Origin: a virus
Lineage: Duplodnaviria; Heunggongvirae; Uroviricota; Caudoviricetes
Length of the DNA stretch: 64,000 nt
Reading direction: 5' to 3' (one strand)
IMG/VR virus record: IMGVR_UViG_3300020049_016248
The notes under the pieces were generated by a model. It worked only from the letters and a program-made list of their open reading frames with translations, was not told the DNA's origin and did not search any database. This document shows, in pieces, positions 11,597 to 31,326 of this stretch (its first letter is position 1; the number at the start of each line of letters is the position of its first letter). A program made the position numbers and the translations under genes.

Positions 11597-12769
11597 ATGA
11601 CAAAAACAGTAACAAAACCAAAAGACCCTAAAACAGTAGTATTTTCAGGTGTTTTTATGAAACTTGCCGACATGAAAGGTGAAAAGAAATTAATCATCTC
11701 ACCTCAGCAAGAGCCTTTATCTCCAACAGAAGCAATTGTTAAACCAGAAATTCAAGCTCAATTTAATAGCTCTGAATGGTATCAAGGTGATTTACTTCAA
11801 ACTGATGAAGGTTTCACTCCAACAGGAACATTGAAAGCTTTAAAAACAAAACCATCTCAAGATGATTTGAAAGCTGTTCGTTCTCGTGTTGAAGCTGCTT
11901 ATTCTGAAATTGCTGCTTTAAAAACTGCATGGGAAGATTACAAGCAATATGAATTTAAAATTGCATCTGGTATTGCAGAAGTTCCAGCAGGGTTAGAAAT
12001 TGACGACAAAGTATGGAACTTGATTTGTACGTCTGCAAAAATTGACAAATACATTCTTTTATTAGGACCTAAAGGTTGTGGTAAAACAGAAACTGCTAAA
12101 CAATTAGCTGCTGCAACAGGTATGGAACTTGTATCTTTCAATATGGGAGCTGCATTTAAACCAAAACAAATGTTTGCTGGAATGTTACAAGCAGAAAACG
12201 GTGACACTGTGTTTATCGAATCTGAATTCTTGAAAGCTTTCCAATCAGAAACACCAACATTAATTTTCTTGGATGAGTTAACTCGTACTCCACAAGTAGC
12301 TACAAACTATTTGATGACAATCCTTGACCGTAACCAATCTTATATTTACATTGAAGAATTAGGTAAACGTGTTTACCGTGGTTCAGGTGTAAGATTTATC
12401 TGCGCTGGTAACGTAGGGTCACAATATACAGATACACGTACAATTGACGGTGCATTCTGGGATCGTTTTATTAAATTGCCAGTGGATTACTTGTCACAAG
12501 CAAAAGAAGAAAAACTTGTTATGTCTCGTGCACCAAAAGCTAATCCAAAAGCAGTAAAAACTTTGATTGACCGTGCAAAGAAAACTCGCGAAGCTGAAAA
12601 ATCTGGTAAATTAAGTTCAGCAATTTCAACACGTCAGTTGATTGATATGGCTCACTACCTTGAATTAGGGTTTACAGTTGAAGAAGTTTTTGAAAACATT
12701 TTCTTAAATAACTTCATCAATGGAAACAATGATGAGCGTTCAGAAATCAAGGCAATCTGCCAATCATAG
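11597..12769 (+). CDS. cobS: CobS-like MoxR-family AAA+ ATPase
   Basis: Walker A LLLGPKGCGKTETAKQLA, Walker B LIFLDELTR, sensor region. Paired with a downstream vWA protein as in CobS/CobT and CbbQ/CbbO. Confidence 0.8.
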   Translation: MTKTVTKPKDPKTVVFSGVFMKLADMKGEKKLIISPQQEPLSPTEAIVKPEIQAQFNSSEWYQGDLLQTDEGFTPTGTLKALKTKPSQDDLKAVRSRVEAAYSEIAALKTAWEDYKQYEFKIASGIAEVPAGLEIDDKVWNLICTSAKIDKYILLLGPKGCGKTETAKQLAAATGMELVSFNMGAAFKPKQMFAGMLQAENGDTVFIESEFLKAFQSETPTLIFLDELTRTPQVATNYLMTILDRNQSYIYIEELGKRVYRGSGVRFICAGNVGSQYTDTRTIDGAFWDRFIKLPVDYLSQAKEEKLVMSRAPKANPKAVKTLIDRAKKTREAEKSGKLSSAISTRQLIDMAHYLELGFTVEEVFENIFLNNFINGNNDERSEIKAICQS

Positions 12770-12795
12770 TTACCAAGTATTACATTGAAATGTAT

Positions 12796-12827
12796 AAAGC
12801 CGCTAGGTTGTTTACTTTAGCGGCTTT
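12796..12827 (+). terminator. hairpin (aaagccgcta / tagcggcttt) between cobS and cobT, overlapping promoter-like motif copy 1
   Basis: 10-bp perfect inverted repeat with an 11-12 nt loop; the downstream T-run is weak. Confidence 0.35.
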
Positions 12828-12835
12828 ATCTTTAG
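12810..12835 (+). promoter_or_regulatory. promoter-like bipartite motif GTTTAC-N11-TATCTTTAG (copy 1)
   Basis: Exact match to a motif repeated 6 times in the window; ATG at 12860. Confidence 0.5.
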
Positions 12836-12859
12836 TTAAATTTAAAAATCAATACTCAT

Positions 12860-14839
12860 ATGAAAAAAATAGGTTCAGCATCAGGTCCTTCTAAGGCTTC
12901 AAAACATTTAGGAAAAAAAATGTTTTCTCGTGATAAAAAACTTGAAGATAAAAAAATTACTAAACCTTTAGAAGAGGTACATCCAGATGAGAAATTTTAT
13001 AACGTTGACAAAAACGAATTAGAAGAAGTAATGTCTTCTAAAAACCGTACGTCAAGTTACTGGTTGCCAGAAACAGATATTCCTGATTACTTTGTGTTAC
13101 AACGTATGATGAAAAACATTAATACTGTTTGTGGTTTTATCACTGGAAAAGCATTGAGAGTTAATTTCTCTGAGATTGATGGTCCAAGTCATGCAGATTT
13201 TGCTGGTGAAGAAATTACTATTTCTATCGGCTCATTATATGACTACCGTATTCCTTTCCATATGAGATTGAATATTGTTTTAGCTTTAGGTATTCATGAA
13301 TCTTGGCATGTAAAATATACTACTCCTGCTATGGAGAGAATGTTAGTGCAAAATGGTTTAACAAAAAGTAAAATTTCTCGTTTTGGATTTGGTAAAACTC
13401 AAAAAGTTGCAGACTTTAGCCAAAGTGGTAAACTTTTCAAACATAACTTCCAAACATTTTTAGCAAATTGTGTTGAAGATAGACGTATTGAACATTTAGG
13501 GTTAATTGATTACCCTGGGTATGTTTACTACATGGAAGAGTTTCGTAAATACGGGTTGTGGTGTAACATTAATGCTTTGTTAAACCCTGTAACTAAACCA
13601 GATTGGAATAACCCAGACCATTTTTATGGTGCATTAACACAATACATTGCATTTAAAAATGTAGCTCCAGAAATCTTACCAGTATTTGCTTCTTATGGAC
13701 CGAATACAAAAGAATTCAAAGCTTTAACAGATAAAGTAGATGCAATTTGTAAAGACGTTCCATTAACTTACGATGACACAATGTCACAGTCTTTAGAATT
13801 GTTGAAATTGTATCCTGACGAGCAAAAAAACAAACAAGCTAAGGAAAAAAATTGTAACGGAGATGGTAACGGTAAAAATCAAGGACCACAAATGGCAGAA
13901 GGAACTGCTGCTGATGGTAAAACTGTAAAACCAAGTAAAGACGAAAAAGAAGCAATTGGTGACATAAAAGACGATAATCAACCTTATGCTACTTCTGAGC
14001 AAAAAGATATTAAAATTGAAGATCGTTTTGACAAACATGACCAATACAGCCACGTTCATATTGAACCTGCAGCAGAAGGTCGTTTTGACCAAGCTGTTTT
14101 TGACCAAGCAAGTGAAATTGCTCGTCAAATTAGCAAAAATTTATCTTTCTTAGATTCACGTTTCAATCGTGTAACAGAAGCTTTTGAAATGAGAAATGGT
14201 GAATTGGATGAGGATGCAATCTTTGGTTTAAAATTCAACAAGGATATTTTCTACGAAGAAGAAGAAGCTCCAGGTTACTCAATGGATTTTGGAATCTTGA
14301 TTGATGAGTCTGGTTCAATGCACGGTAGCAAAATTCGTGATGCTAAAATTGCTGCATTAGCTTTAGCAATTGCTTTGAAAGATAACCAACATATTAACTT
14401 GTTTGTTTACGGTCACACTGCAAATACAGGAGGTCACCCAATTACAATGTACAAATACTTTGACCAATTAGAAAAAGGTTGCCAAGATATTTCAACATTG
14501 TTTTCAGTAGAAGCAAGATCTAACAATGCAGATGGTTATGCAATTTCTGCAATGGGAGATATCTTAAACAAAGGTAAATCAAGACAAAAAGTTTTAATTG
14601 TTGCATCTGACGGTCAACCACACGCATCAGGTTACGGTGGAAGACAAGCTAACCAACATACTGCTCAAATGGTTCAAAAACTTGAAATGCAAGGAATGTT
14701 TGTTTGTCAAATTGCAATGGAAAACTTTAACTCTGCTGAAATGTTTACAAACTTTGTTCCTTATGACAAAAACAGCTTAGGAGTTAACTTGAAAAAAGTG
14801 TTGTTAAAAAAATTAGTAGAAATCTCAAACTTAGTATAA
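12860..14839 (+). CDS. cobT: CobT-like von Willebrand factor A (vWA) domain protein with N-terminal HExxH-containing region
   Basis: C-terminal MIDAS motif LIDESGSMHG (DxSxS) followed by IVASDGQP. HESWH motif near aa 150. Immediately downstream of the MoxR AAA+ gene. Confidence 0.75.
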   Translation: MKKIGSASGPSKASKHLGKKMFSRDKKLEDKKITKPLEEVHPDEKFYNVDKNELEEVMSSKNRTSSYWLPETDIPDYFVLQRMMKNINTVCGFITGKALRVNFSEIDGPSHADFAGEEITISIGSLYDYRIPFHMRLNIVLALGIHESWHVKYTTPAMERMLVQNGLTKSKISRFGFGKTQKVADFSQSGKLFKHNFQTFLANCVEDRRIEHLGLIDYPGYVYYMEEFRKYGLWCNINALLNPVTKPDWNNPDHFYGALTQYIAFKNVAPEILPVFASYGPNTKEFKALTDKVDAICKDVPLTYDDTMSQSLELLKLYPDEQKNKQAKEKNCNGDGNGKNQGPQMAEGTAADGKTVKPSKDEKEAIGDIKDDNQPYATSEQKDIKIEDRFDKHDQYSHVHIEPAAEGRFDQAVFDQASEIARQISKNLSFLDSRFNRVTEAFEMRNGELDEDAIFGLKFNKDIFYEEEEAPGYSMDFGILIDESGSMHGSKIRDAKIAALALAIALKDNQHINLFVYGHTANTGGHPITMYKYFDQLEKGCQDISTLFSVEARSNNADGYAISAMGDILNKGKSRQKVLIVASDGQPHASGYGGRQANQHTAQMVQKLEMQGMFVCQIAMENFNSAEMFTNFVPYDKNSLGVNLKKVLLKKLVEISNLV

Positions 14840-15477
14840 TGGCTGAAAAAAAAGAAGACGGTAAAGGGAGAAAACTTCCCTTTACTATCAAATACGAAAT
14901 CGAAGAAACTGCAGATGGTGCAGATGTAAACTTTAAGCTTGAAAACAGCGAAGAAGATCGTTTGTTTGCTTACATGGTTACTTTATGGGACCTTAGTCAA
15001 TTACTTGACAGAGCAATGGATGATAAACGTATTCCAACAGAAGTAAAAGCAGATTTCTTAACAGCTGCTAAGATTTTGAAAGATATGACCCAGGCTTGTA
15101 AAATGAAAGTAGAAGAAAAGCTTAAAATGGGAACTGAAACAACTATCATGGAAAGATTACAAAAACTTTTCAAAGATGTAGCAGGTGACATGAATGAAGA
15201 AAATCCTTTCAAAGATTTAAAAGACCTAGGTAAAGATGGAATGAAACCATCTAAGGTAGTCATCGGTGGAGATGTTCCAGAAGAAATTCGACAACAACTT
15301 GAGGATGCTCTCAAAGCACAATTCGGTGAAGATATTGACATCGGTAACATGTCAAAAAAAGAAACTGAAGAACTTATCAGTAAACGAAAATCAAAAGGTG
15401 AAAAGTCTGACGATGAAGTTGACTTTGATGATTTAGATAAAAAATCAAATAAAGATTCATCTGATATTGATATGTAA
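14839..15477 (+). CDS. highly acidic hypothetical protein
   Basis: 212 aa, D/E-rich throughout, with a C-terminal DDEVDFDDLD run. Confidence 0.5.
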   Translation: MAEKKEDGKGRKLPFTIKYEIEETADGADVNFKLENSEEDRLFAYMVTLWDLSQLLDRAMDDKRIPTEVKADFLTAAKILKDMTQACKMKVEEKLKMGTETTIMERLQKLFKDVAGDMNEENPFKDLKDLGKDGMKPSKVVIGGDVPEEIRQQLEDALKAQFGEDIDIGNMSKKETEELISKRKSKGEKSDDEVDFDDLDKKSNKDSSDIDM

Positions 15478-15604
15478 AAAATAACTGAAACTGTAACAAT
15501 TAAAAAAGTATTATGTAGAGTTACAGGGTTGAGGACCGAATAGGGGGGCTACATCTTCAGGAATCGGCTTAGACCTGTTATAGTTTCAGTTTAATTTTAA
15601 AGTT

Positions 15605-15985
15605 ATGAATTTACAAATTTATGCCAAAGGGACTAAGTTAAGGTTAACAAAAGATTGGAATTTCCAATGTCATAAAGATGGTTATGGGCTTATGCCTTAC
15701 TCACCTACAAATAGTTATACTTTACAAGCAGGTACAATCTTATCAATTCATGATATTGATATTCGAGGTAATTGCAAAGTTCCAAGGTCAGTTTGTTTTC
15801 TTATCCCTAAAAAAGGTTGTCCTAGTGATGATTTTTACGAAAGTCAAACTTTTCATGTTGACTTCAATCAATTAGATAATTTAGAGTTTGAGTTAAATTC
15901 AAAAGCTGACTTAAAGTTAAATTCAATCAAGTTGAAAGATATGATAAGTTCAATCAATGAAGAGTTAAACGTTAAAGAAAAATAA
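15605..15985 (+). CDS. hypothetical protein
   Basis: 126-aa ORF. Confidence 0.45.
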   Translation: MNLQIYAKGTKLRLTKDWNFQCHKDGYGLMPYSPTNSYTLQAGTILSIHDIDIRGNCKVPRSVCFLIPKKGCPSDDFYESQTFHVDFNQLDNLEFELNSKADLKLNSIKLKDMISSINEELNVKEK

Positions 15986-15986
15986 A

Positions 15987-16376
15987 ATGAACTTAGAAAG
16001 TATTATCCTTTTTATAAGTATTGTTGTTATACATTTTATTGCTGATTTCATTTTCCAGGATGAGAAATGGGCAGTAGGAAAAAGTCATTCTATAAAACTA
16101 TTAACTTTACATGTTAGTATGTATACAACTGTATGGTTTATGTTTTGTAACTTTTACTGCTATGCAACAGGGAATTATATGATATATTTTTTAGTTCCGA
16201 TAACTTTTGTTTCACATTGGTTAACAGATTACTTTACTTCTAAAGTCACAAGTCGTTTATATGCTGAAAAGAAATTCGGCTCATCTATACCTAATTTAAG
16301 TTTCTTTACAATGATTGGATTTGACCAAGTGTTACATTATATTCAATTATTCTTAACTTTTTATTTTTTAAGTTAG
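15987..16376 (+). CDS. hypothetical membrane protein
   Basis: 129 aa with 3-4 hydrophobic helices. Confidence 0.45.
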   Translation: MNLESIILFISIVVIHFIADFIFQDEKWAVGKSHSIKLLTLHVSMYTTVWFMFCNFYCYATGNYMIYFLVPITFVSHWLTDYFTSKVTSRLYAEKKFGSSIPNLSFFTMIGFDQVLHYIQLFLTFYFLS

Positions 16377-16421
16377 TTTGTAGTTTACAAGGTTTAAAGT
16401 ATCTTAAGGTAAAATTAAAAT

Positions 16422-16700
16422 ATGAAAATCACTACAATCATATCACAAATTGATATCTTATTAGAAGCTTTAAAACAAACACAAACAGTTTATAAGGTTT
16501 CTTACAAAGAACAAGTAGATATCTCTTGTTTAAAACTATTTTTAGACCTCTCTTTACTTAATTTAGATTTACTTTATTCTCTGCAAGAGAAATGTAAAGA
16601 ATTAGGTATTGAAGCTGAAATAACTATCCCAACTCACATTGATGGTGTCGCGGTAAAAGATTTACCTGTTGACAAGCAATGTTTAACAATTCATTTTTAA
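16422..16700 (+). CDS. hypothetical protein
   Basis: 92-aa ORF. Confidence 0.4.
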   Translation: MKITTIISQIDILLEALKQTQTVYKVSYKEQVDISCLKLFLDLSLLNLDLLYSLQEKCKELGIEAEITIPTHIDGVAVKDLPVDKQCLTIHF

Positions 16701-16948
16701 TATGGTTGAAAGAACTAAAACTTTAAGTTCTCGTGAACAGAAAGCACAGAGATTGAAAGAACAAGTATTAAAAACTGAACAAAGTTTAAACGCACTTATA
16801 TACTTATATGAAAAGCGTTACCTATATATTACAACAGTAAGTAAGTAAATAATTGTTTTAATTTATTTTATTTCCTACTTTTACATTAAGCATTAACAGG
16901 TATGCTTAATAATACTCCCTGTTTATAAATCTTATTATTTATTAATTA

Positions 16949-17473
16949 ATGAAAGAAGTAAGATTATGTGCTAATCAAGAGTGTGGTAAAGAGTTCACTG
17001 TTTGGTCTTCACAAAAGAAGAGATATTGTTGTAGAAAGTGCACAATGACTTTAGAAAGGCGAGAGTCAATAAGACAAGAGAAAACTGGAAAACCAAACCC
17101 CAAAGTATCAATTGCACTGAAAAATTCTATTTCAGCTAAAAAATATCAATTTAAAAAGGGAAAAGACAATCCAGCATTTGGACGAAATCAAACAGGTGAA
17201 GCAAATCACAATTGGAAAGGTGGAAAAACAAATAAGAATCAAAAATTAAGAAATAGTCCACAGTATAAAATTTGGCGACAAGCTTGTATGGAACGAGATC
17301 ACTTTCAATGTACTGATTGTGGTGCAAAGGGATATTTACAAGTACATCATATAAAAGAGGTCTCTAACTACCCTGAACTTATTTGGGAACTTGATAACGG
17401 AAAAACAGTTTGCGTGTCGTGTCACGAAAAAATACACGGAAGATTTATAGGAAAATTTAAACAACAAAAATAA
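16949..17473 (+). CDS. HNH homing endonuclease with N-terminal Cys-rich zinc-finger region
   Basis: C-terminal VHHIKEVSNYPELIWELDNGKTVCVSCHEKIH is an HNH motif; CxxC pairs at the N-terminus. Confidence 0.75.
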   Translation: MKEVRLCANQECGKEFTVWSSQKKRYCCRKCTMTLERRESIRQEKTGKPNPKVSIALKNSISAKKYQFKKGKDNPAFGRNQTGEANHNWKGGKTNKNQKLRNSPQYKIWRQACMERDHFQCTDCGAKGYLQVHHIKEVSNYPELIWELDNGKTVCVSCHEKIHGRFIGKFKQQK

Positions 17474-18366
17474 TGGAAAATAAAAAAAAATATGCCTGTA
17501 TAAGTTTATCAGGTGGGATGGACTCTTCTACTTTACTTCTTAAATTGTTAGTTGAAGGTTATAATGTTACTGCTTTATCTTTTAATTACGGTCAAAAACA
17601 CTCTGTAGAATTAGAAAGAGCAACTGAATTAGTGAAATATATTAAATCAGATTCAAAAGGGGCTGGAAAAAGACAATCTGGAACTTTAACTCATCAAATT
17701 ATTAAACTAGATGGTTTAGGACAATTGTTAAATTCAACTTTAGTTGAAGGTGGTTCAGATGTTCCAGAAGGGCATTATGCTGAAGAAAATATGAAAGACA
17801 CGGTTGTGCCAAATCGTAATAAAATATTTTCTTCAATTATTCAAGCAGTTGCTTTATCTATAGCAGAACAAAATAATACTGAATGCGCTATTGCTATGGG
17901 TATTCATGCTGGTGATCATGCTATCTACCCTGATTGTAGACAAGAGTTTAGAGATGCAGATTTTGAAGCTTTCAAACAAGGTAATTGGGGGTCTGAAAAA
18001 GTAATCATCTATACTCCTTATCTTCATACTGATAAATTCGGTATTTTAGAAGATGGGTTAGTTTGTTGTGAAAAGTTAAGTTTAGATTTTAACGAAATAT
18101 ATAAACGTACTAATACAAGTTATAAGCCAATTTTTATCAGAGAAGTTTCTAAACAAACAATAGACGATAAAGACTATTACACCCCTGAAAGTAATGGTAA
18201 ATGGTATTCAGATTATAAGTCAGCAAGTTCGGTAGAACGAATAGAAGCATTTATTAAATTAGGTAAACAAGACCCAGTTGAATATGCTGATGAAACAGGA
18301 CCTGTTTCATGGGAAACAGCAAAAGCTTATGTAGAGAAAGTTCTCGCTGAACATAGTAATAAATAG
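17473..18366 (+). CDS. queC: QueC-like PP-loop ATPase (7-cyano-7-deazaguanine synthase homolog) with divergent C-terminal extension
   Basis: SLSGGMDSST (SGGxDS PP-loop), LSFNYGQKH (FDYGQRH), VPNRNKIF (VPGRNILF) and YPDCRQEF (YPDCRDEF) align with E. coli QueC. The canonical C-terminal Zn-binding CxxC cluster is not evident. Confidence 0.75.
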   Translation: MENKKKYACISLSGGMDSSTLLLKLLVEGYNVTALSFNYGQKHSVELERATELVKYIKSDSKGAGKRQSGTLTHQIIKLDGLGQLLNSTLVEGGSDVPEGHYAEENMKDTVVPNRNKIFSSIIQAVALSIAEQNNTECAIAMGIHAGDHAIYPDCRQEFRDADFEAFKQGNWGSEKVIIYTPYLHTDKFGILEDGLVCCEKLSLDFNEIYKRTNTSYKPIFIREVSKQTIDDKDYYTPESNGKWYSDYKSASSVERIEAFIKLGKQDPVEYADETGPVSWETAKAYVEKVLAEHSNK

Positions 18367-18385
18367 TTAAATTATTTTAAATTAA

Positions 18386-18420
18386 GAACCTACGCTACGC
18401 GTAGGTTCTCCTTGTTTTTA
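18386..18420 (+). terminator. rho-independent terminator-like hairpin (gaacctacgc / gcgtaggttc) followed by a T-rich tract
   Basis: Perfect 10-bp stem with a 3-nt loop, then tccttgttttta. Confidence 0.6.
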
Positions 18421-18446
18421 ACGTTTTTTGTTATTTTCGGTAGGAA

Positions 18447-18472
18447 GTTTACAAGTTTAACCATATCTTTAG
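18447..18472 (+). promoter_or_regulatory. promoter-like motif GTTTAC-N11-TATCTTTAG (copy 2)
   Basis: Exact motif; followed by conserved ATTATAAATTAAAAC and an ATG at 18497. Confidence 0.5.
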
Positions 18473-18496
18473 ATTATAAATTAAAACATATAGCAA

Positions 18497-18834
18497 TGAG
18501 TTATAAAAAATTCAAAATGACTGAAGAAGAGTTTATCGATTATTGCGAATCTCTTACTGAACAAGAATTGAAAAGATTTCAATTAGAGTCAAAAAAGGAT
18601 GATATTCAAAGAGCACACCATTGGCTTTATATTGCATGTATTACAATGGTTTTAGCATCATTTTCTACAAACTGGGCTAAACATGTAGCAGATTCTACAT
18701 TATTATATGTTACTTGCTTTATAATTACAATAGTTTCAATTTTTTTCGTTTTCGGTTTACTTAAAAGAATAAAACAAGAAAAATTAATGTATAAAATGTT
18801 AGAAATTTTCTACAAAGAAAACAATATCCTTTAA
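18497..18834 (+). CDS. hypothetical membrane protein (the ORF-track start at 18412 is probably too early)
   Basis: First ATG downstream of the promoter-like motif; two TM helices. Confidence 0.45.
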
Positions 18835-18836
18835 TC

Positions 18837-19016
18837 ATGGCAAAGAAAAAAGAAATTATCAAATTTGACCCCGAAGAAGTTAGAAAAGGGTTAAAAGGTA
18901 TTCGCAGACAAGAAGAAATTGATAACCAATTGCGAATACCTACTCATACTGTTCAAAAAAGTAAAAAAGAATACACTCGTAAACGTAAACATAAGAAAAA
19001 TTTTGAAGTTGAATAA
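18837..19016 (+). CDS. small basic protein (59 aa)
   Basis: ATG 18837 to TAA 19014-19016. K/R-rich. Below the ORF-track length cutoff. Confidence 0.3.
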   Translation: MAKKKEIIKFDPEEVRKGLKGIRRQEEIDNQLRIPTHTVQKSKKEYTRKRKHKKNFEVE

Positions 19017-19023
19017 TTTTATA

Positions 19024-19032
19024 TATCTTTAG
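19024..19032 (+). promoter_or_regulatory. variant promoter-like -7 box TATCTTTAG (upstream hexamer GTTGAA) ahead of the cassette array
   Basis: Matches the 3' half of the repeated promoter motif. Confidence 0.3.
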
Positions 19033-19066
19033 TAAAAAATAAATTTAAAGTTCTGAACCTCGCATT

Positions 19067-19086
19067 ACATATACACCTTGTTATAC
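19067..19086 (+). repeat. isolated 3' box ACACCTTGTTATAC (core-site-like GTTATAC) at the head of the array; possible attI-like boundary
   Basis: Almost identical to the 3' end of element D (tacaccttgttatatgc) and followed by the same cacggtttattaatg. Confidence 0.35.
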
Positions 19087-19144
19087 ACAGTACGGTTTAT
19101 TAATGTTGAATGCTGATACAAAGAATAATTAAAATTAAAAAAAT

Positions 19145-19477
19145 ATGCACAAACAAAAGGAAGTAAAAATAAATGTTGATGATAAAATACAACCACTAAT
19201 TCAATTTATATTTGATAGATTAACTGGTTTGATACCAATAGCATCTTGTATAGGTGGAGATGAATCACAAAACGAAAGTATGGATTGTTATATACTACTA
19301 ATAGTTAGGAATCATAATCATCTAAATCATCTAATGGATTTATGTTCATCTTGGCATTGTCAGTATATCAAACCAAATGGTGAAACTGGAAATGTACCAA
19401 CATATAGAATAAGTATTTCTAATTTAAACGATGTGTTGGATAAATTGAATTTGATAGATGAAAATTATATTTTTTAA
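19145..19477 (+). CDS. cassette-like small ORF 1, hypothetical
   Basis: 110 aa. Confidence 0.45.
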   Translation: MHKQKEVKINVDDKIQPLIQFIFDRLTGLIPIASCIGGDESQNESMDCYILLIVRNHNHLNHLMDLCSSWHCQYIKPNGETGNVPTYRISISNLNDVLDKLNLIDENYIF

Positions 19478-19591
19478 TTTACACCGAACTTAATTTGATA
19501 CACGAATATAGTATTGTGTATAACGTTCGGGCGGTTGGCGTTCGTTGCCGACTTTGGAACAAGAAACTTTAACTTTAAAAATAAATTTGAT

Positions 19592-19834
19592 ATGGAAAAC
19601 AAAACTTCAACAAGCCACGAAAACGGCAATGACGCTAACCGCTTGTTAGCACCAGTTATTTTTTGGCAACGCTTTGACCAAGTTAAACCACAAGGCGATG
19701 CGGAATATTTGGTGTGCAATACAGATGGCGTTATTCGAGTTAGTTACTTTGATGGCAAAGATTGGGGATATTTAGCTATTGTAAAAGAAAATATTACGCA
19801 TTGGTCAATACTTCCGAGTGTGCCAGTCATATAA
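19592..19834 (+). CDS. cassette-like small ORF 2, hypothetical (start moved to the first ATG)
   Basis: MENKTSTSHENG...; the ORF-track start at 19514 lies within the intergenic repeat. Confidence 0.4.
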   Translation: MENKTSTSHENGNDANRLLAPVIFWQRFDQVKPQGDAEYLVCNTDGVIRVSYFDGKDWGYLAIVKENITHWSILPSVPVI

Positions 19835-19839
19835 TTGGT

Positions 19840-19930
19840 GCTAACGGTTGGCAATATATGTAGTTGCCATGCACGAACTTAAAAATTAAATATAAACCTT
19901 AATAGGCAATTACATATATTGCTTGTTAGC
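19840..19930 (+). repeat. attC-like imperfect palindromic element B (GCTAACGG...GCTTGTTAGC)
   Basis: 5' box GCTAAC and 3' box GTTAGC are complementary. Inner arms ggcaatatatgtagttgcc / ggcaattacatatattgc with a ~37-nt loop. Extrahelical bases lie between the boxes. Confidence 0.55.
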
Positions 19931-19943
19931 AAATCGTAAAATT

Positions 19944-20099
19944 ATGGCATCAGAGAAGAAAAAACGTAAAGCAGATAAAAGACTTCATTGGGGTAGAGGT
20001 AAGAACTTCATGAAGTGGGTTGGTAAAGGCATCAAAGGTCTTTGTTATTTCACATCATCTCAAAGACAAGCAGATAAGAAGTTCGACATTGACGAATAA
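19944..20099 (+). CDS. cassette-like small ORF 3 (51 aa, basic)
   Basis: ATG 19944 to TAA 20097-20099. Not in the ORF track (<60 aa). Confidence 0.35.
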   Translation: MASEKKKRKADKRLHWGRGKNFMKWVGKGIKGLCYFTSSQRQADKKFDIDE

Positions 20100-20109
20100 T
20101 TTTATGTTT

Positions 20110-20201
20110 GCTAACGGTCGGCAATATGAAATGGTTGCCTTGTAAGACGTTTAAAATTTAGTAATAGCCTATCGGCAACTTTTTTATATTGCTTGTTAGG
20201 C
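20110..20201 (+). repeat. attC-like element C (GCTAACGG...GCTTGTTAGGC)
   Basis: Same architecture as element B, with a different stem sequence. Confidence 0.55.
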
Positions 20202-20216
20202 ACAGTAATTTATCAA

Positions 20217-20474
20217 ATGAAAATATATCAAACAAATGCAGCACTTGGTTATAGACAACTTGCATTTCTAATTAGATTAGATAAAAGTGCGAATGGACAC
20301 AACTACCTATGTATAGGCACACAAAATATTAATGACAACGAAATGTATCAAATTGGTAAAATAGTTGAAGATTTAGAAGATTTTTATTTGGAAGATACAA
20401 CTTTCAAAATAACTGATTCTGAATTAAACGGAACTTATCTGTTTGATTACTGGGTTTCTCATTATTGTGCCTAA
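20217..20474 (+). CDS. cassette-like small ORF 4, hypothetical
   Basis: First ATG after element C; the ORF-track TTG start lies inside the repeat. Confidence 0.45.
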   Translation: MKIYQTNAALGYRQLAFLIRLDKSANGHNYLCIGTQNINDNEMYQIGKIVEDLEDFYLEDTTFKITDSELNGTYLFDYWVSHYCA

Positions 20475-20564
20475 CGGTTGGGTGTATGAGAAGGTTTGCT
20501 TAGATGAACTTTCAAATTAATACAAATACATGTAGCAAACTTTCTTATACACCTTGTTATATGC
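20469..20564 (+). repeat. attC-like element D (GCCTAACGG...CCTTGTTATATGC)
   Basis: 5' box overlaps the stop codon of ORF 4. 20-bp stem ggtgtatgagaaggtttgct / agcaaactttcttatacacc with a 33-nt loop. Confidence 0.55.
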
Positions 20565-20579
20565 TTGCACGGTTTATTA

Positions 20580-20930
20580 ATGATAAAATTAATTAAAATG
20601 AAAAAGTTTAAATTTGAAGATTTACAATTAATTAATGTAGGCGATATTTATGCTATTACTTATAACGATAAAATAATTACCCTTGAAGGTAAAACCACAT
20701 TTTCGACAATAAGTAATGCGAAAAATATGCTTCAAAAAGTATTAACTGCTAATTATCATCAAGGACATTATTGGCACAAAGGTAAAGAAAATACCTTTTC
20801 TGATGAAGGTGGGCATATGAGAAACGGGGGTGTTATGGCTGGTTTGGATAAAATATTTAAAAAATTAGGCAAAGAACTAACTGAAGAATTACTTTCTAAT
20901 GGCGTTTTTGTGATTAAAAAAATACAATAG
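20580..20930 (+). CDS. cassette-like small ORF 5, hypothetical
   Basis: The ORF-track start at 20565 is TTG inside the repeat; first ATG at 20580. Confidence 0.45.
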   Translation: MIKLIKMKKFKFEDLQLINVGDIYAITYNDKIITLEGKTTFSTISNAKNMLQKVLTANYHQGHYWHKGKENTFSDEGGHMRNGGVMAGLDKIFKKLGKELTEELLSNGVFVIKKIQ

Positions 20931-20959
20931 TAATTTAGTAGCACGTTTGTAGTGCTTGC

Positions 20960-21052
20960 ATATAACGGCTTGGTGTATGAGAAGGTTTGCTTTGATGAAC
21001 TTCAAATTTACACTGAACTTGATAGCAAACTTTCTCATACACCTTGTTATAG
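20960..21052 (+). repeat. attC-like element E (ATATAACGG...CCTTGTTATAG), close paralog of element D
   Basis: Stem sequence nearly identical to D; loop diverged. Confidence 0.55.
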
Positions 21053-21096
21053 TTAGTTTTATTTTTTATTTTACAAAATTATAAATTTTCATAGAT

Positions 21097-21396
21097 ATGA
21101 CTGAAGAACAAATGAAAGAATATGTAGTAAATGGTGGAAAACTTTTTACTATCACTTTGATTGACACTATTAGAGATGGTGGAACAAAGATTATAAAAAC
21201 AACAAAAGACGATTATTATATCCATAAGGATAGTAAAAAGTTTCATTCTGGTTACACACCAAGTGAAGAAAATTTAATAACAGATTTTTTGTTAATAGAA
21301 TACTTGGTTGAACGAATTGAAACATACATCAAAAGATGTGTGGAAGATGTTGAACGAAACAAAAATCTGTTAATAGAAATTCAAAATAAAAAATAA
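21097..21396 (+). CDS. cassette-like small ORF 6, hypothetical
   Basis: 99 aa. Confidence 0.45.
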   Translation: MTEEQMKEYVVNGGKLFTITLIDTIRDGGTKIIKTTKDDYYIHKDSKKFHSGYTPSEENLITDFLLIEYLVERIETYIKRCVEDVERNKNLLIEIQNKK

Positions 21397-21402
21397 TATT
21401 AA

Positions 21403-21474
21403 CTATAACGGTTCGCAGATAAGCGAAGGCAAAGATTTAGAAACTAAAATTTTAACTTAAAAACAGAATATAAT
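21403..21474 (+). repeat. degenerate or partial attC-like element F (CTATAACGG + short hairpin ttcgc/gcgaa + loop-like motif), no clear 3' box
   Basis: Shares the 5' box and the gaaactaaaattttaacttaaaa loop-like motif with element B. Confidence 0.35.
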
Positions 21475-21723
21475 ATGAAAACGAGAACATCAATTTACCA
21501 CCGCACCTTTGCTTTTGCTTATGTGCTGTTAGTAGCTGTTATTTTTTGCGGTTGCGAAGGTAACGTAGAGCAGAAATCAACACCATATAGGCTTAGTGGC
21601 GGTCTTAATGTAGAAATAGTGATAATTGATAGTTGCGAATACATCATAATAAATGGTGGAAATGCAACTTGGGGAAGCCACAAAGGGAACTGTAAATTTT
21701 GTGCAGAACGTAGCAAAAAATAA
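21475..21723 (+). CDS. cassette-like small ORF 7, putative secreted protein or lipoprotein
   Basis: N-terminal hydrophobic segment ending in CGCEGN. Confidence 0.45.
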   Translation: MKTRTSIYHRTFAFAYVLLVAVIFCGCEGNVEQKSTPYRLSGGLNVEIVIIDSCEYIIINGGNATWGSHKGNCKFCAERSKK

Positions 21724-21726
21724 TTG

Positions 21727-21823
21727 CTACTAACGTTTTGCGTATATACGAGGTACGCCTTAACGAAAATTTCAAATTATAAACAAATGCTTGTAGGCGT
21801 ATCTTGTATATACGCTGTTAGGC
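21727..21823 (+). repeat. attC-like element G (CTACTAACG...CTGTTAGGC)
   Basis: Arms gcgtatatacgaggtacgcc / ggcgtatcttgtatatacgc; 3' box GTTAGGC fits the integron core GTTRRRY. Confidence 0.55.
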
Positions 21824-21835
21824 GAAGTACTTATT

Positions 21836-22075
21836 ATGGATTTTAGAAAAACATTAAAATACCTACGCATTGTGCAAACGGTATCAAACGAAGAAAGGCA
21901 CAAACAAGGATTGAAAAGATTAGGTCGTGGCTATTTCAATGCACACAGATTTAACCCTTACAATCCGCTTAGTTACATAGCACTCATTATTATACTAATT
22001 GTAGGTATATTAATGTTTGGCTTTGTCGGATTTTGGAAAGAAACTACAACGCTCAATCCGTTTCGGTGGGATTAG
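21836..22075 (+). CDS. cassette-like small ORF 8, membrane protein
   Basis: 79 aa with one strong TM helix. Confidence 0.45.
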   Translation: MDFRKTLKYLRIVQTVSNEERHKQGLKRLGRGYFNAHRFNPYNPLSYIALIIILIVGILMFGFVGFWKETTTLNPFRWD

Positions 22076-22081
22076 TATTTC

Positions 22082-22161
22082 GCCTAACGGTATCAAGCTA
22101 AAAGCTGACCGCCTTTATAAGCGGTTTGGTGATGGCGGTTTGATTTTAGGTTGTGTTATAT
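22082..22161 (+). repeat. attC-like element H (GCCTAACGG...GTGTTATAT), more degenerate
   Basis: 5' box GCCTAAC fits the inverse-core RYYYAAC; internal hairpin accgcctttataagcggt. Confidence 0.4.
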
Positions 22162-22183
22162 TTAGGTTTTTAAATTTTTAGCG

Positions 22184-22393
22184 ATGGAAGAAATGATAAA
22201 TTGTAAATGCGAAAAATGCGGAGTTGATTACGAGAAACCTGCAACTTTCAAAAAATGGAATGAAGAAAATACAAACGTGTTTTTTAGATGGAGTTTAGCA
22301 TTTTGCGATATGTGCAGGCGAGAAAAAGAACGTGAAGCATTGAAAGCATTACCAAATGTTTTGAGTGCGTTGGCAGAAAATTTAAAAACTTGA
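22184..22393 (+). CDS. cassette-like small ORF 9, zinc-ribbon-like protein
   Basis: CKCEKCG...CDMCRRE, two CxxC pairs. Confidence 0.45.
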   Translation: MEEMINCKCEKCGVDYEKPATFKKWNEENTNVFFRWSLAFCDMCRREKEREALKALPNVLSALAENLKT

Positions 22394-22455
22394 ATATAAC
22401 ATAAATATATAACAACTGTCTTTTAAAACAGTAATAAAATTAACAGTTTTAAGTC

Positions 22456-23271
22456 ATGGAAACACTCATTGAAAGTAAAGTTAATCGATTTGTTGAAAAG
22501 TTAGAGTTAAAACGTTACTCTAAAAACACAAAAAATATATATCTTTCAAACTTTAAATCTTTTTTAAACTATTTTAAAGGAGATATAGATAATTTAAAAG
22601 ATTCAGATATTTGTAATTATATTTTAACACAATCTAAAAACAAGTCGTACTCTTATCAAAATGTGTTAACAAATACTATTAAATTTTATTACGAAAAGGT
22701 AAATTATAGAAAAAGAAGGTTTTATAAAATAGAAAGACCTAAACAAGAAAGAAAGTTACCACAAGTGATTTCTAAAGAAGAAGTTTTAAAATCTATAGAG
22801 TTAATACCTAATTTAAAACATAAAGCAATAATTTCACTAGCTTTTTCTACTGGAATGAGAGTAAGTGAGATATGTAATTTGAAAATAGTAGATATTGATT
22901 CAAAGAGAATGATTTTAAGAATTTTAGATAGTAAAGGTAAAAAAGATAGAATAGTTCCTTTATCTGAAAGTATACTAACTTTGTTGAGAAGTTATTGGCA
23001 AGAATATAAACCTAAATTTTATTTATTTGAATCCTATAAACCTGGGGTTAAATATTCGACAGCGAGTTGTAGACAAATATGGAATAAATATAAAATAAAT
23101 AAGCAAAGTACTTTTCACACTCTTAGACATAGTTTTGCTACAACTATGTTAGAAAATAAAACTGATATTAGGACAATTCAAAGACTTTTAGGTCATTCTA
23201 ATTTGAAAACAACAGAAATATATACCCACGTTTCTACTGATTATTTGAAAACTTTAAAGTTACCTATATAA
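22456..23271 (+). CDS. tyrosine site-specific recombinase (XerC/XerD-like size, 271 aa)
   Basis: Catalytic residues in order: R (GMRVSE), K, HxxR (HTLRHSFAT), H (LGHSNL), Y (EIYTHV). N-terminal SAM-like core-binding domain. Confidence 0.8.
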   Translation: METLIESKVNRFVEKLELKRYSKNTKNIYLSNFKSFLNYFKGDIDNLKDSDICNYILTQSKNKSYSYQNVLTNTIKFYYEKVNYRKRRFYKIERPKQERKLPQVISKEEVLKSIELIPNLKHKAIISLAFSTGMRVSEICNLKIVDIDSKRMILRILDSKGKKDRIVPLSESILTLLRSYWQEYKPKFYLFESYKPGVKYSTASCRQIWNKYKINKQSTFHTLRHSFATTMLENKTDIRTIQRLLGHSNLKTTEIYTHVSTDYLKTLKLPI

Positions 23272-23297
23272 ACATATTGATTTTATTAAGGTTTGAA

Positions 23298-23323
23298 GTT
23301 TACTAATTATACTGTATCTTTAG
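23298..23323 (+). promoter_or_regulatory. promoter-like motif GTTTAC-N11-TATCTTTAG (copy 3)
   Basis: Exact motif plus the conserved GTTATAAATTTAAAAC extension; ATG at 23347. Confidence 0.5.
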
Positions 23324-23346
23324 GTTATAAATTTAAAACCAATAAA

Positions 23347-23913
23347 ATGAATAAATCAGTAAACAAATCAGCAAAAGAAGAAGTTGCAGACTTCTTAGAA
23401 GGTAAACCATTCTTGAATTCAAGACAAGCTTATCGTGCATTTAAAACTGCTAACCCAACATCAAAAGTAAGCCAAGGGTATTTCTACACCTTATTTACAA
23501 CTTTCGGTGACAAGGAAACTAAAGCATCAAAAGTAATTGATTTTATCAAACCAGAAATCTACGGTAATTGCTCTAAAGCTTACAAAGCTTATTGTGCTGA
23601 CACTGAAGAAGGTAAGAGAGTTGTATTTGCATACTTCTTAACTAACTGGAAGAAAGAATTAGGTATTGTTGGTTCAGCAAAAATCAAAAAAGAAAAAGTA
23701 GCTAAAAAAGAGAAAGTTGTTAAAGCAAAACAACCAAAAATTACACGTGCGGTTGTTGAAGTTAAAAACTTATCAGCTAAACAAATTTTAGCTAAAATTG
23801 CAGAACACGACAAAGCTTCTAAAATTTTAAATTTCAACGTGAAAAACAAAGCACGTATTTTAAAAGAAGCAATTTCTTTCTTTCAAACAAAAGGATTTGA
23901 AGTAATTGCTTAA
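23347..23913 (+). CDS. lysine-rich histone H1-like / DNA-binding protein (start adjusted)
   Basis: KKEKVAKKEKVVKAKQPK low-complexity basic region; the ORF-track start at 23293 overlaps the promoter motif. Confidence 0.45.
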   Translation: MNKSVNKSAKEEVADFLEGKPFLNSRQAYRAFKTANPTSKVSQGYFYTLFTTFGDKETKASKVIDFIKPEIYGNCSKAYKAYCADTEEGKRVVFAYFLTNWKKELGIVGSAKIKKEKVAKKEKVVKAKQPKITRAVVEVKNLSAKQILAKIAEHDKASKILNFNVKNKARILKEAISFFQTKGFEVIA

Positions 23914-29379: not shown

Positions 29380-29451
29380 GCGTTCTTAGCTGAGGTGGTT
29401 TAGCATTTGGTTGAAGCCCAAAAGACACTGGTTCGACTCCAGTAGATCGCA
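29380..29451 (+). tRNA. tRNA-Phe (anticodon GAA)
   Basis: Hand-folded cloverleaf: acceptor gcgttct/agatcgc (one T-T mismatch), D-arm gctg-aggtggtt-tagc, anticodon arm tttgg-ttGAAgc-ccaaa, T-arm actgg-ttcgact-ccagt. Confidence 0.6.
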
Positions 29452-29457
29452 CAATAT

Positions 29458-29531
29458 GATTCTGTAGCTCAGTTGAATAGAGCAATTGCCTTCTAAGCAA
29501 TAGGTCAAAGGTTTGAATCCTTTCAGAATCA
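29458..29531 (+). tRNA. tRNA-Arg (anticodon TCT)
   Basis: Acceptor gattctg/cagaatc perfect; D-arm gctc-agttgaata-gagc; anticodon arm attgc-ctTCTaa-gcaat; T-arm aaagg-tttgaat-ccttt. Confidence 0.8.
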
Positions 29532-29543
29532 CTTAAAATAAAT

Positions 29544-29625
29544 GCCGACGCGCTAACGTTGGAGGGTTAGGACAGTCTGTAAAACTGTTACATAAGTCTA
29601 GTAGGTTCGAATCCTATCGGCGGCA
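29544..29625 (+). tRNA. tRNA-Tyr (anticodon GTA), class II with long variable arm
   Basis: Acceptor gccgacg/cggcggc (one mismatch); anticodon arm acagt-ctGTAaa-actgt; 12-nt variable region; T-arm gtagg-ttcgaat-cctat. Confidence 0.65.
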
Positions 29626-29707
29626 CTAGCAGAACACAACTGCTGAAACAAATAGGTGATTCAGTTATCGGTGAGCAAGTCTGAACTAAAACAAAATGTT
29701 GCTTAAT

Positions 29708-29784
29708 GGACATATAGCTCAGCTGGTAGTAGCAAATGATTGTTAATCATTAGGTCGTAGGTTCGAACCCTACTATGTCCGCCA
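29708..29784 (+). tRNA. tRNA-Asn (anticodon GTT), CCA encoded
   Basis: Acceptor ggacata/tatgtcc perfect; anticodon arm aatga-ttGTTaa-tcatt; T-arm gtagg-ttcgaac-cctac; followed by gcca. Confidence 0.8.
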
Positions 29785-29793
29785 AGTAAACAA

Positions 29794-29879
29794 GCGAGTG
29801 TCGCATAGAGCCCGATTGCACCTGACTTCCAATCAGGAAAGATAAAATCACAACGCAGGTTGAAATCCTGTCGCTCGCT
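29794..29879 (+). tRNA. atypical tRNA-like gene (anticodon loop reads TCC = Gly, but 17-nt variable region, 3-bp D-stem and non-canonical T-loop ttgaaat)
   Basis: Acceptor gcgagtg/cgctcgc with a G-U pair; anticodon arm cctga-ctTCCaa-tcagg; unusual for a Gly tRNA. Possibly a pseudo-tRNA or non-canonical tRNA. Confidence 0.35.
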
Positions 29880-29923
29880 CTCAGCCAGTTGTTAAATCTG
29901 GTGAAAATTAAAACTTAACAAAC

Positions 29924-29996: not shown

Positions 29997-29997
29997 C

Positions 29998-30114: not shown

Positions 30115-30129
30115 CTAAAAAATAAAATT

Positions 30130-30542: not shown

Positions 30543-30567
30543 CTATTGTTTAAATTCTAAACGAATA

Positions 30568-31316: not shown

Positions 31317-31326
31317 TAAAACACAT

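Follow-up and report, generated by a model that had tools for sequence, protein, structure and literature searches.

Why should a phage genome hold a run of small, unrelated genes, each accompanied by a hairpin and all of them pointing toward a recombinase gene? The question is raised by a 64,000-nucleotide (nt) stretch of a Caudoviricetes genome, IMG/VR record IMGVR_UViG_3300020049_016248 (hereafter the window, meaning the whole stretch). Between 19.0 and 22.4 kb it consists of nine units of one open reading frame (ORF) each, with eight hairpin elements, A to H, between them and a decayed hairpin at the left edge. The ORFs, whatever their size (110, 80, 51, 85, 110, 99, 82, 79, and 69 amino acids), all lie on the + strand, and the array runs up to a tyrosine recombinase gene (22456-23271) on the same strand. 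A first-pass annotation had described an integron-like array with attC-like sites at this place, and rereading the sequence locates the elements where that annotation had put them. Its array, the folding of the elements, and their compensatory changes all stand; an integron in the strict sense does not, the recombinase being without the insertion found in IntI. We consider it likely that the locus is an integron-like, site-specific platform for gene cassettes, built on a different recombinase of the Xer type and carried by a large phage of Bacteroidota.

Five of the elements (B, C, D, E, and G) are clear copies of medium size, located by a search for the pattern TAACG...CTTGTTA with a gap of 60-90 nt. 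As single-stranded DNA each of them folds into an outer stem, TAACG(G) paired with (C)TTGTTA, an inner stem of 18-21 base pairs (bp), and an A+T-rich loop of ~35 nt, with a bulge of 3-4 nt on the 5′ arm only; their folding z-scores range from -2.0 (C) to -6.2. The long elements A and F have loops of ~75 nt. The claim that compensatory changes preserve the hairpin is borne out: among the five medium copies double changes occur at 15 of 27 pairs, and the inner stems vary yet stay paired. In an alignment of 62 family members, which had been fitted to a covariance model, 95.8% of pair cells are paired, double changes occur at 20 of the 27 pairs, and the covariation score is 0.60, against 0.16 after shuffling and at most 0.13 with slid partners. 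Elements D and E, and likewise B and C, are 88-97% alike and form the subfamilies already recognized. A covariance model built from the five medium copies (R1) matched only the array when the 64-kb window was scanned; the match ranking next after H (28.9 bits) and F (22.1 bits) had an E value of 0.77. Single boxes by themselves are only weakly enriched in the window.

Across the family the elements form three discrete size classes of ~50, 88, and 125 nt. The generic site on the + strand reads 5′-ATTR-nnn-M-TAAC-G-(3-4 nt bulge)-stem-loop-stem-(T)-T-GTTA-K-nnn-YAGT-3′, and the complete outer box is 12 bp, ATTR-nnn-M-TAAC paired with GTTA-K-nnn-YAGT. Measured against attC, the AAC and GTT are invariant, the three sizes compare with ~57-141 nt, the spacer is asymmetric (in 196 of 197 elements it is longer on the 5′ side than on the 3′ side, by 2-4 nt), the inner stem covaries, and the extra bases lie on the other arm. 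Within each size class the loops carry motifs that are conserved across unrelated phages, GAACTTTCAAATTA-like in the medium class (for example at 20508-20521 of the window) and a nearly invariant TCGTTTTAATG in the short class (for example at 1470-1480 of locus L029). These motifs could be the binding site of an accessory factor, a promoter, or a structural feature.

Further evidence lies outside the hairpins. In the window, each element's GTTA is followed by bases whose reverse complement stands before the TAAC of the next element, and all nine cassettes show this complementarity, over 9-10 nt or more. Given as the sequence after GTTA and the sequence before the next TAAC, the pairs are, from left to right, GTTATACACA and TGTGTATAAC; GTTAGCACCA and TGGTGCTAAC; GTTAGCAAA and TTTGCTAAC; GTTAGGCACA and TGTGCCTAAC; GTTATATGC and GCATATAAC; GTTATAGTTA and TAACTATAAC; GTTAGTAGC... 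and ...GCTACTAAC, over 22 nt; GTTAGGCGAA and TTCGCCTAAC; and GTTATATTTAGG... and ...GAATATAAC, over 28 nt. When the 6 nt after the GTTA of element k-1 were compared with the 6 nt before the TAAC of element k in all loci of the family, at least five of the six were complementary in 107 of 143 neighboring pairs, and in 99 of the 113 pairs separated by less than 700 nt; the same agreement was seen between an element's own two flanks in 6 of 198 cases and in 3% of random pairs. The ends of each ORF unit thus pair with one another and the flanks of a hairpin do not, which is what would be expected if the units circularize and the crossover takes place in one outer box. The flank complementarity appears, on sequence grounds, to be the circular-cassette signature that defines the cassettes of integrons.

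Where, then, does a cassette begin? It had been supposed that each cassette is an ORF plus the repeat downstream of it. Four lines of evidence agree in pointing to the reverse, a cassette made up of a hairpin and the ORF on its downstream side. Of 82 long elements, 48 have the start of their longest downstream ORF within the loop, compared with 2 of 52 medium and 3 of 19 short ones. The distance from the stop codon to the next TAAC has a median of 9 nt, and the stop is often the TAA of that box, as at 20472-20474 of the window and at about 252-254 of contig L088, where the recombination box overlaps the end of the gene. Of 166 units, 162 have a longer ORF on the + strand than on the - strand. 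The upstream hairpin stays with shared cassettes: in the only cassette common in full to two arrays (loci L021 and L039) the upstream hairpin is retained at 81% identity and the downstream one is not (59%, and of another size class), and the cassette that begins with element A recurs in the unrelated, 36-kb Flavobacterium phage 11b, where homology extends from one TAAC to the following one, with identical flanks, a related upstream hairpin, and different neighbors. As to which hairpin travels with an ORF, an all-against-all comparison yielded few shared cassettes, so that the test consists of these two clean cases and the start-codon statistics. The TTG starts at 20193 and 20565, which had been placed within repeats and taken to favor a downstream repeat, are artefacts of the ORF finder; the gene calls in an identical contig begin at the ATGs at 20217 and 20598.

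An attI-like site had been suggested at ~19.07 kb, at the far left of the array. We find it instead at the right end, directly before the recombinase gene: at 22397-22455 on the + strand a TAAC is followed by the fixed sequence ATAAATATATAACAACTGTCTTTTAAAACAGTAATAAAATTAACAG, up to the recombinase ATG. The consensus TAAC-TAnTATATATAA occurs 40-110 nt before the recombinase gene in ~58 of 68 loci, and we take it to be the probable equivalent of attI, with the crossover in the 5′ TAAC box. Comparison of the window with contigs from other samples that encode the identical recombinase, most of which are colinear at ≥99.9%, is informative here. Two of them, L088 and L089, are 99.4-99.5% identical to the window from 22396/22397 on, through the recombinase gene, and unrelated before that point. 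The junction reads ...GAATATAAC joined to ATAAATATATAAC... in the window, ...TACGCCTAAC joined to ATAAATATATAAC... in L088, and ...TTGGTCATAAC joined to ATAAATATATAAC... in L089. Three different cassettes therefore meet TAAC|ATAAATATATAAC exactly, 56 nt before the recombinase start codon, within flanks that are 99.4-100% identical, and in each swapped cassette the start flank matches that cassette's own end flank. Gene content does change at a box boundary between these near-identical genomes, the two contigs departing from the window exactly at TAAC. At its end, the L089 cassette is similar to the attI-proximal cassette found in another phage (L076). A metagenome scan for the fixed attI-like sequence brought no new contig and a scan of IMG/VR none, which leaves a population sample of three variants. 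The 69-amino-acid, Zn-ribbon-like ORF next to the site was entertained as a fixed accessory factor and rejected; it is merely the last cassette, replaced in both L088 and L089.

Two further contigs, L082 (1-175) and L083 (1-160), differ elsewhere. Their array is otherwise identical; homology begins at window position 20154, midway through element C's loop, with unrelated sequence to its left. They come either from a variant genome whose array was cut short at another point or from a chimeric assembly, and their distal end resembles the left end of the window's own array. A DNA search of INPHARED around the region returned only a distant relative, Flavobacterium phage immuto, similar in the QueC gene alone, and no syntenic genome with which to compare gain and loss.

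The association between hairpins and recombinase extends well beyond this genome. A search of IMG/VR with the recombinase yielded 77 loci, with 45-61% identity and many of them on contigs of 100-640 kb. R1 found ~200 elements in these loci, and every match on the + strand lay upstream of the recombinase gene. An independent detector (TAAC...GTTA with a 14-nt stem) was run over 427 kb upstream and 570 kb downstream. It found 203 elements that lie upstream on the + strand against 3 downstream on the + strand, 7 upstream on the - strand, and 0 downstream on the - strand; the corresponding figures from a relaxed version, which also catches short elements, were 238, 5, 7, and 1. Of the 65 loci whose upstream sequence measured 500 nt or more, 58 held at least one element in the relaxed run, 43 held at least two, and one held as many as 18 in 8 kb. 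The seven genes that flank the module in the window have no homologue near the recombinase in the IMG/VR loci, from which it follows that the linkage is functional and not a relic of common descent of the region. The adjacent recombinase does, then, belong to the system, as had been proposed. The pattern that a family of terminators or regulators would give, with elements upstream of core genes genome-wide, was not seen; in the 77 loci the elements are tied to the upstream side of the recombinase.

Palindromes repeated between small variable ORFs, in a hyperplastic region of a phage genome, could also be selfish miniature repeats, similar to miniature inverted-repeat transposable elements (MITEs) or repetitive extragenic palindromes (REPs), or hot spots for homologous recombination that shuffle small genes without a dedicated enzyme, and subfamilies that are 88-97% alike would suit such an origin. 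Yet the elements keep a single orientation and form one array per genome, which ends at a conserved site by the recombinase; in the window nothing else was found in 64 kb. Their inner stems vary and keep pairing, unlike copies of one MITE, the boundaries of exchange are exact at TAAC and not spread through the repeat, and complementary flanks have no role in homologous exchange. Nor was a transposase gene, of the HUH or RAYT (REP-associated tyrosine transposase) kind or otherwise, found in the region. We regard this explanation as very unlikely.

Strand bias bears on two readings at once. The + strand folds more stably in 195 of 218 elements (mean -13.65 versus -11.70 kcal/mol, with DNA parameters), and together with its G.T excess and longer 5′ spacer this indicates that the fold is under selection on the + strand. 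The box that would be cut sits at the 5′ end of this strand, as in the recombinogenic bottom strand of attC; by that analogy, stability and box position fit a folded-strand substrate. The R″ and R′ labels originally given to the boxes need to be exchanged: the + strand corresponds to the integron "bottom" strand, with the crossover probably in the 5′ TAAC and the ORFs pointing to the recombinase. The alternative is that the hairpins act in RNA or transcription before each small gene, as translation-initiation platforms, processing or stability sites, or attenuators, and that the recombinase is unrelated to them. The + strand is the sense strand, its stem oppositions (349 G.T versus 48 A.C with a detector that treats both alike) have the bias expected of G.U pairs, long elements hold start codons in their loops, and loop motifs are conserved. 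Such a role leaves unexplained why the outer flanks of each ORF are complementary and those of each element are not, why the elements are confined upstream of one recombinase family in otherwise unrelated genomes, why the invariant TAAC/GTTA is common to the hairpins and the attI-like site, and why cassettes are swapped exactly at TAAC. The region gave no Rfam match at any gathering score (best E = 0.69) and one terminator-like match, outside the elements, compared with 1.6 in shuffled sequence, and the elements have no T-tract; a scan of the region for sigma-70 promoters found nothing. An exclusively RNA-level function seems to us unlikely, and a secondary role of the hairpins in the transcript is possible.

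The recombinase (22456-23271, + strand, 271 amino acids; Pfam PF00589, E 2.6e-38) is, by its sequence and predicted fold, Xer/XerA-like and not IntI-like, lacking the I2 insertion. The best NCBIfam model is XerA_Arch NF040815, at 206.7 bits against a cutoff of 220, with the XerC/D models far below their cutoffs. XerA in the Protein Data Bank (PDB; 4a8e) aligns collinearly with an E value of 3.7e-40, and an AlphaFold 2 model (predicted local distance difference test score 89.3) contains no extra helix and has XerA 5hxy as its best fold match. All 41 homologues compared retain the catalytic R, K, H-x-x-R, H, and Y, and judging from these residues the enzyme looks active.

These properties bear directly on the possibility of a canonical IntI-type integron, captured by the phage or native to it. 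The AAC/GTT boxes, the imperfect palindromes of 50-130 nt, the position of the array beside a tyrosine recombinase, and a partial match to TIGR02249 all agree with that possibility, as does the fact that a member of the family, P12002L_attC1 of Polaribacter phage P12002L, was called attC by IntegronFinder and HattCI (PMC9892861). But the integron integrase models score far below their cutoffs (TIGR02249, 167.8 bits against 265; NF011946, 107.3 against 435), and each matches in two stretches that skip the IntI-specific insertion; in the alignment with VchIntIA (2a3v), residues 179-209 of the recombinase (31) stand for residues 179-255 (77), and the fold model, without the extra helix, again leads to XerA. 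The ORFs lie on the opposite strand relative to the polarity of the site, and P12002L_attC1 was the sole failure among six sites tested with IntI1, which recombined all the others (PMC9892861). That failure fits a site meant for a different enzyme. Of the features by which an integron is known, an attI-like site and circularizable cassettes are present here, and the IntI insertion and the cassette/promoter polarity are absent. A canonical integron is, in our judgment, extremely unlikely. Integrons are regarded as an invention of bacteria in which the key step was the gain of the I2 helix by a Xer-like ancestor, a step believed to have made recombination of a folded single-stranded attC possible (PMC7790495).

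A Xer-like enzyme with a site beside its own gene, as an attP would be, might instead be a lysogeny integrase or dimer resolver for which TAAC-TATATATAA serves as the attP- or dif-like site, the array being a zone of moron accretion at secondary sites; Cellulophaga phage Ingeline has a 40% identical copy besides another integrase, as this explanation might lead one to expect. The homologues lie in contigs of 100-640 kb, however, as well as in this phage, which has tRNA genes and the look of a virulent jumbo phage (the longest contig with the identical protein measures 219,579 bp), and no prophage junction was observed. The DNA associated with the enzyme is an array of hairpins of 50-130 nt and one simple site, not a single duplex dif of ~28 bp with 11-bp arms and a 6-8 bp center. 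We hold this explanation to be improbable, and it would still need recombination between a hairpin and a site to account for the flank signature, which makes it a variant of the cassette platform and not an alternative to it.

The sequence data show the anatomy of sites and cassettes, the exclusive linkage and orientation, the flank signature, the attI-like site, the junction-exact replacement, and the shared TAAC-bounded cassette. A cassette platform operating on these parts might work as follows. Each cassette comprises a hairpin site (~50, 88, or 125 nt), a short 5′ untranslated region (UTR), one small ORF, and an end flank. The adjacent Xer-like recombinase would bind the folded + strand and cut in the 5′ TAAC box, by analogy with IntI on the bottom strand of attC and XerCD on the attP of CTX phage. 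Recombination of hairpin with hairpin would excise a circular cassette whose own end and start flanks pair and so rebuild the outer stem; recombination of a hairpin with the double-stranded attI-like site would insert the cassette next to the recombinase gene; and the junction would be resolved by replication. We infer catalysis by this recombinase, the single-stranded + strand as substrate, the exact bond cleaved in TAAC, and resolution by replication. Since all the ORFs point toward the recombinase gene, array and recombinase can be co-transcribed, and if it is the coding strand that folds into the substrate, the act of transcribing the array could make the sites accessible.

Several observations weigh against this scheme. 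The evidence for recombination is indirect, from sequence, and no circular junction was observed. The recombinase has no I2 helix, the part by which IntI reads extrahelical bases, and its principal task could lie elsewhere, in dimer resolution or integration for example. The unpaired bases between outer and inner boxes, correctly noticed at the outset, form a bulge of 3-4 nt on the arm with the cleaved box, whereas the extrahelical bases of attC are on the opposite arm. Because the + strand also carries the sense of the genes, a role of the hairpins in RNA would account just as well for the excess of G.T and for the start codons in loops, and the cassette model does not account for the conserved loop motifs GAACTTTCAAATTA and TCGTTTTAATG. 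Replacement at the attI-like site was seen in two short metagenome-assembly contigs (1.2 and 1.4 kb), and the conserved TATATATAA of that site could be partly or wholly the promoter of the recombinase gene. With these points weighed, we still consider a Xer-based cassette platform the likely general mechanism. On balance, and with some reserve, we favor a fuller form of it: integron-type capture on an I2-less, Xer/XerA-like recombinase, newly arisen or ancestral, would be native both to many large Bacteroidota phages that seem to be virulent and to certain Bacteroidota chromosomes, and single-gene cassettes (methyltransferases, Mom, ADP-ribosyltransferases, and hundreds of ORFans) would be traded between unrelated phages.

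The individual cassettes, all on the + strand, can now be delimited. Nine ORFs, each with its own element, had been counted, and nine units there are, but element A is long, H is degenerate, and the leftmost hairpin has decayed. The body of cassette 1 (19084-19520) carries an ORF of 110 amino acids (19145-19477) that has no family match and is a gene call in the identical contig L080; it ends in the x flank ATTGTGTA, just 5′ of TAAC. Cassette 2 (19521-19841) opens with long hairpin A (19521-19648; 14 of 14 stem pairs with the detector), in whose loop lies the ATG of the 80-amino-acid ORF (19592-19834), a weak match to DUF551. Cassette 3 (19842-20111) consists of hairpin B (19842-19928) and an ORF for a basic protein of 51 amino acids (19944-20099), and cassette 4 (20112-20471) of hairpin C (20112-20198) and an 85-amino-acid ORF (20217-20474), whose TAA stop (20472-20474) doubles as the TAA of the next TAAC box. 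Cassette 5 (20472-20962) follows with hairpin D (20472-20559; 109.6 bits with R1) and a 110-amino-acid ORF (20598-20930), and cassette 6 (20963-21405) with hairpin E (20963-21049) and a 99-amino-acid ORF (21097-21396).

Cassette 7 (21406-21730) contains element F, which had been read as a degenerate half-site. It is a complete long element (21406-21531; 13 of 14 pairs with the detector, 22.1 bits with R1) with the ATG of the next ORF in its loop; this ORF (21475-21723, 82 amino acids) has a lipoprotein-like N terminus partly encoded by the 3′ arm, and a 22-nt inverted repeat (I7) joins the start of the cassette to its end. Inverted repeat I19 does the same in cassette 8 (21731-22084), made up of hairpin G (21731-21820) and a 79-amino-acid ORF (21836-22075) with one predicted transmembrane stretch. 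The attI-proximal cassette 9 (22085-22396) has the degenerate hairpin H (22085-22158; 28.9 bits with R1, E 5.6e-4) and the 69-amino-acid ORF (22184-22393), with a Zn-ribbon-like CxxC...CxxC; its start and end are joined by inverted repeat I2, 28 nt long and 89% complementary.

At the left end, the orphan 3′ box that had been taken as attI-like is real (GTTA, 19080-19083), but it is what is left of a decayed hairpin and not an attI. Read directly from the sequence, this distal hairpin occupies 19014-19083 on the + strand. TAAT replaces TAAC at 19014-19017 (a stop codon plus T), overlapping the stop of a 59-amino-acid ORF (18837-19016), and is followed in order by the attI-core-like TTTTATATATCTTTAG, a loop remnant, an intact 3′ arm, CATTACATATACACC, at 19063-19077, and TTGTTA at 19078-19083. 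The 3′ arm and the subsequent 5′ UTR match their counterparts in element D (repeat families D6 and D7), and the x flank at 19515-19520, TGTGTA, is complementary to the y flank, TACACA. The stretch 19014-19040, TAAT plus TTTTATATATCTTTAG, resembles the core of the attI-like site and is one of only three + strand matches to WTATATATMWW in 64 kb; it could be a decayed hairpin arm, the promoter of the array, or a relic of a second attI-like site. A scan of the 64 kb gave no sign that the attI-core-like motif is a general promoter motif of this phage.

Some neighboring genes deserve mention. A QueC-like 7-cyano-7-deazaguanine synthase gene (17473-18366) has 69.5% DNA identity to that of Flavobacterium phage immuto, and seven tRNA genes (Phe, Arg, Tyr, Asn, two Gly, and Lys) lie at 29380-31508; together they are consistent with a large phage that modifies its own DNA. 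The gene that follows the recombinase gene (23293-23913) has two forms among near-identical contigs, 206 and 188 amino acids, a difference that may reflect different start-codon calls only.

The cargo was surveyed in 149 cassette ORFs with a median length of 92 amino acids. Few match Pfam; those that do include three DNA methyltransferases, a Mom-like protein, GNAT acetyltransferases, an ADP-ribosyltransferase, YopX, a phosphatase, and several DUFs, and the window's nine cassette ORFs have no significant family match. In only 2 of the 166 units is more than 50% of an ORF shared with a unit in another locus. By these sequence comparisons the cargo resembles a mobile accessory pool, as diverse as that of chromosomal integrons. 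One tiny gene is strikingly conserved across phages whose hosts belong to different phyla: over 111 nt, the ORF of cassette 3 has 83.8% DNA identity to a small ORF of phage Lbo-JY46 of Leptolyngbya, a cyanobacterium, near which no hairpin element was detected.

Related platforms seem, from the covariance searches, to occur in many other phages and in some bacteria. With a broader covariance model, R2, arrays were found on the strand opposite to the recombinase gene in bacterial contigs or metagenome-assembled genomes (Croceivirga radicis L098, L113, L103, L093, and L121), and a phage-like arrangement was found in L128 and L094. In L098, the cultured Flavobacteriaceae genome Croceivirga radicis HSG9, this arrangement is found at 12049-19421; L113 shows it at 12455-20261 of a 180-kb contig binned as Akkermansia, where the array has at least nine elements that bear the flank signature and ends in TACACATAAC|TTATATATAG, ~1 kb past the recombinase stop codon. 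These two arrays suggest a bacterial or other non-phage version with a convergent arrangement. The Flavobacteriaceae homologues P0089 (357 amino acids) and P0075 (376) have an N-terminal extension and no IntI insertion; we rejected the idea that bacterial homologues of ~357-376 amino acids are true IntI, the extra ~100 residues being N-terminal. In the 42.6-kb Cellulophaga phage Ingeline_1 (L170), which has two integrase genes, the gene at 8959-9750 is the one 40% identical to the window recombinase, and small ORFs precede it; R2 detected no element in this phage at E 0.01.

The case of P12002L (L171) shows how such arrays have been met before. Qi et al. 2023 screened 10,705 phage genomes with IntegronFinder and HattCI, found IntI integrons only in temperate phages, and listed 17 attC-site clusters that have no integrase (CALINs), P12002L included (PMC9892861). 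In this phage R2 finds four elements between a methyltransferase gene and a Mom gene, and no recombinase is annotated. P12002L_attC1 (L171, 30000-30063) is a member of our short class, with the loop TCGTTTTAATG, and is identical to the published oligonucleotide; that study saw two divergent "attC" sites and no integrase and read them as integron components usable by IntI1, and it did not describe a cognate recombinase, an attI-like site, the polarity of the cassettes, or a large family (PMC9892861). Within Bacteroidetes, a complete integron has been reported by IntegronFinder 2.0 only for Salinibacter (PMC9024848). Our full-text search of the literature, incomplete in its coverage, turned up no account of an attC-like array together with a Xer-type recombinase, whether from phages or from Bacteroidota; the nearest is PMC9892861. 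Phage CALINs may, then, be the arrays of unrecognized platforms that do not use IntI, and not the debris of bacterial integrons.

A recombinase family without I2 that is tied, across dozens of unrelated phage genomes, to arrays with every DNA-level hallmark of cassette capture challenges the present view of integrons. If our reading is true, recombination of cassettes at hairpin sites does not require the innovation made by IntI, and phages own a dedicated bank of swappable accessory or anti-defense genes. Should the enzyme work as proposed, it would represent either a second, independent way of recombining hairpin sites or a surviving intermediate in the evolution of integrons, and it would explain how small accessory genes pass between unrelated phages, such as a jumbo phage and the 36-kb siphovirus 11b, which hold one cassette in common with exact boundaries. 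It would also provide a large catalogue of phage cassettes to mine for anti-defense functions, a few of them matching DNA-modification or ADP-ribosylation families, and a new recombinase/site pair for genome engineering in Bacteroidota.

Other known systems share single aspects of this one. Val and colleagues reportedly found, in 2005, that XerCD integrates the folded single-stranded DNA of CTX phage. There, it is said, an enzyme of the Xer family without an I2 domain acts on a one-strand hairpin that mimics a duplex core site, with one pair of strand exchanges and a product fixed by replication, and by analogy this is a precedent for the feasibility of the proposed chemistry with Xer-type enzymes. 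The CTX system differs in that a single attP hairpin reportedly directs integration of a whole genome at dif by host enzymes, with no array and no phage recombinase. The pdif modules of Acinetobacter plasmids are Xer-dependent gene modules, small and bounded by Xer-type recombinase sites in different contexts; their sites, unlike those described here, are 28-bp duplex dif-like sequences in alternating orientation, which are not known to have a hairpin, an array beside a dedicated recombinase, or a flank signature. The PeSL (promoter/stem-loop) modules of T4-type phages, which Arbiol and colleagues are said to have described in 2010, likewise place stem-loop intergenic repeats beside small variable ORFs in hyperplastic regions of phage genomes, but these units of promoter plus stem-loop are thought to act by homologous recombination and reportedly have no linked recombinase, crossover box, or attI-like site.

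The closest parallel remains the integron. The phage platform and the integron have in common an array of one-gene cassettes, imperfect-palindrome sites of ~50-130 nt bounded by AAC...GTT, a crossover that would lie in one outer box whose halves belong to neighboring cassettes, a simple insertion site beside the recombinase gene, one strand that folds better than the other, and a huge diversity of cassettes that are mostly ORFans. Both orientations of the recombinase gene occur in each; the phage platform is co-directional in the window and the IMG/VR loci and convergent in L113 and L098. They differ in the enzyme, which in the phage lacks the I2 or additional domain and is closest to archaeal XerA, and in the outer box, which is an R box of 12 bp (ATTRnnnMTAAC) with conserved G.T wobbles. 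The phage site lies 5′ of its ORF, often holding the start codon, and the ORFs are on the equivalent of the attC bottom strand. Integron cassettes are promoterless, carry attC 3′ of the ORF, and are read away from attI by the cassette promoter, Pc; the phage ORFs read toward the attI-like site, with no outward Pc logic.

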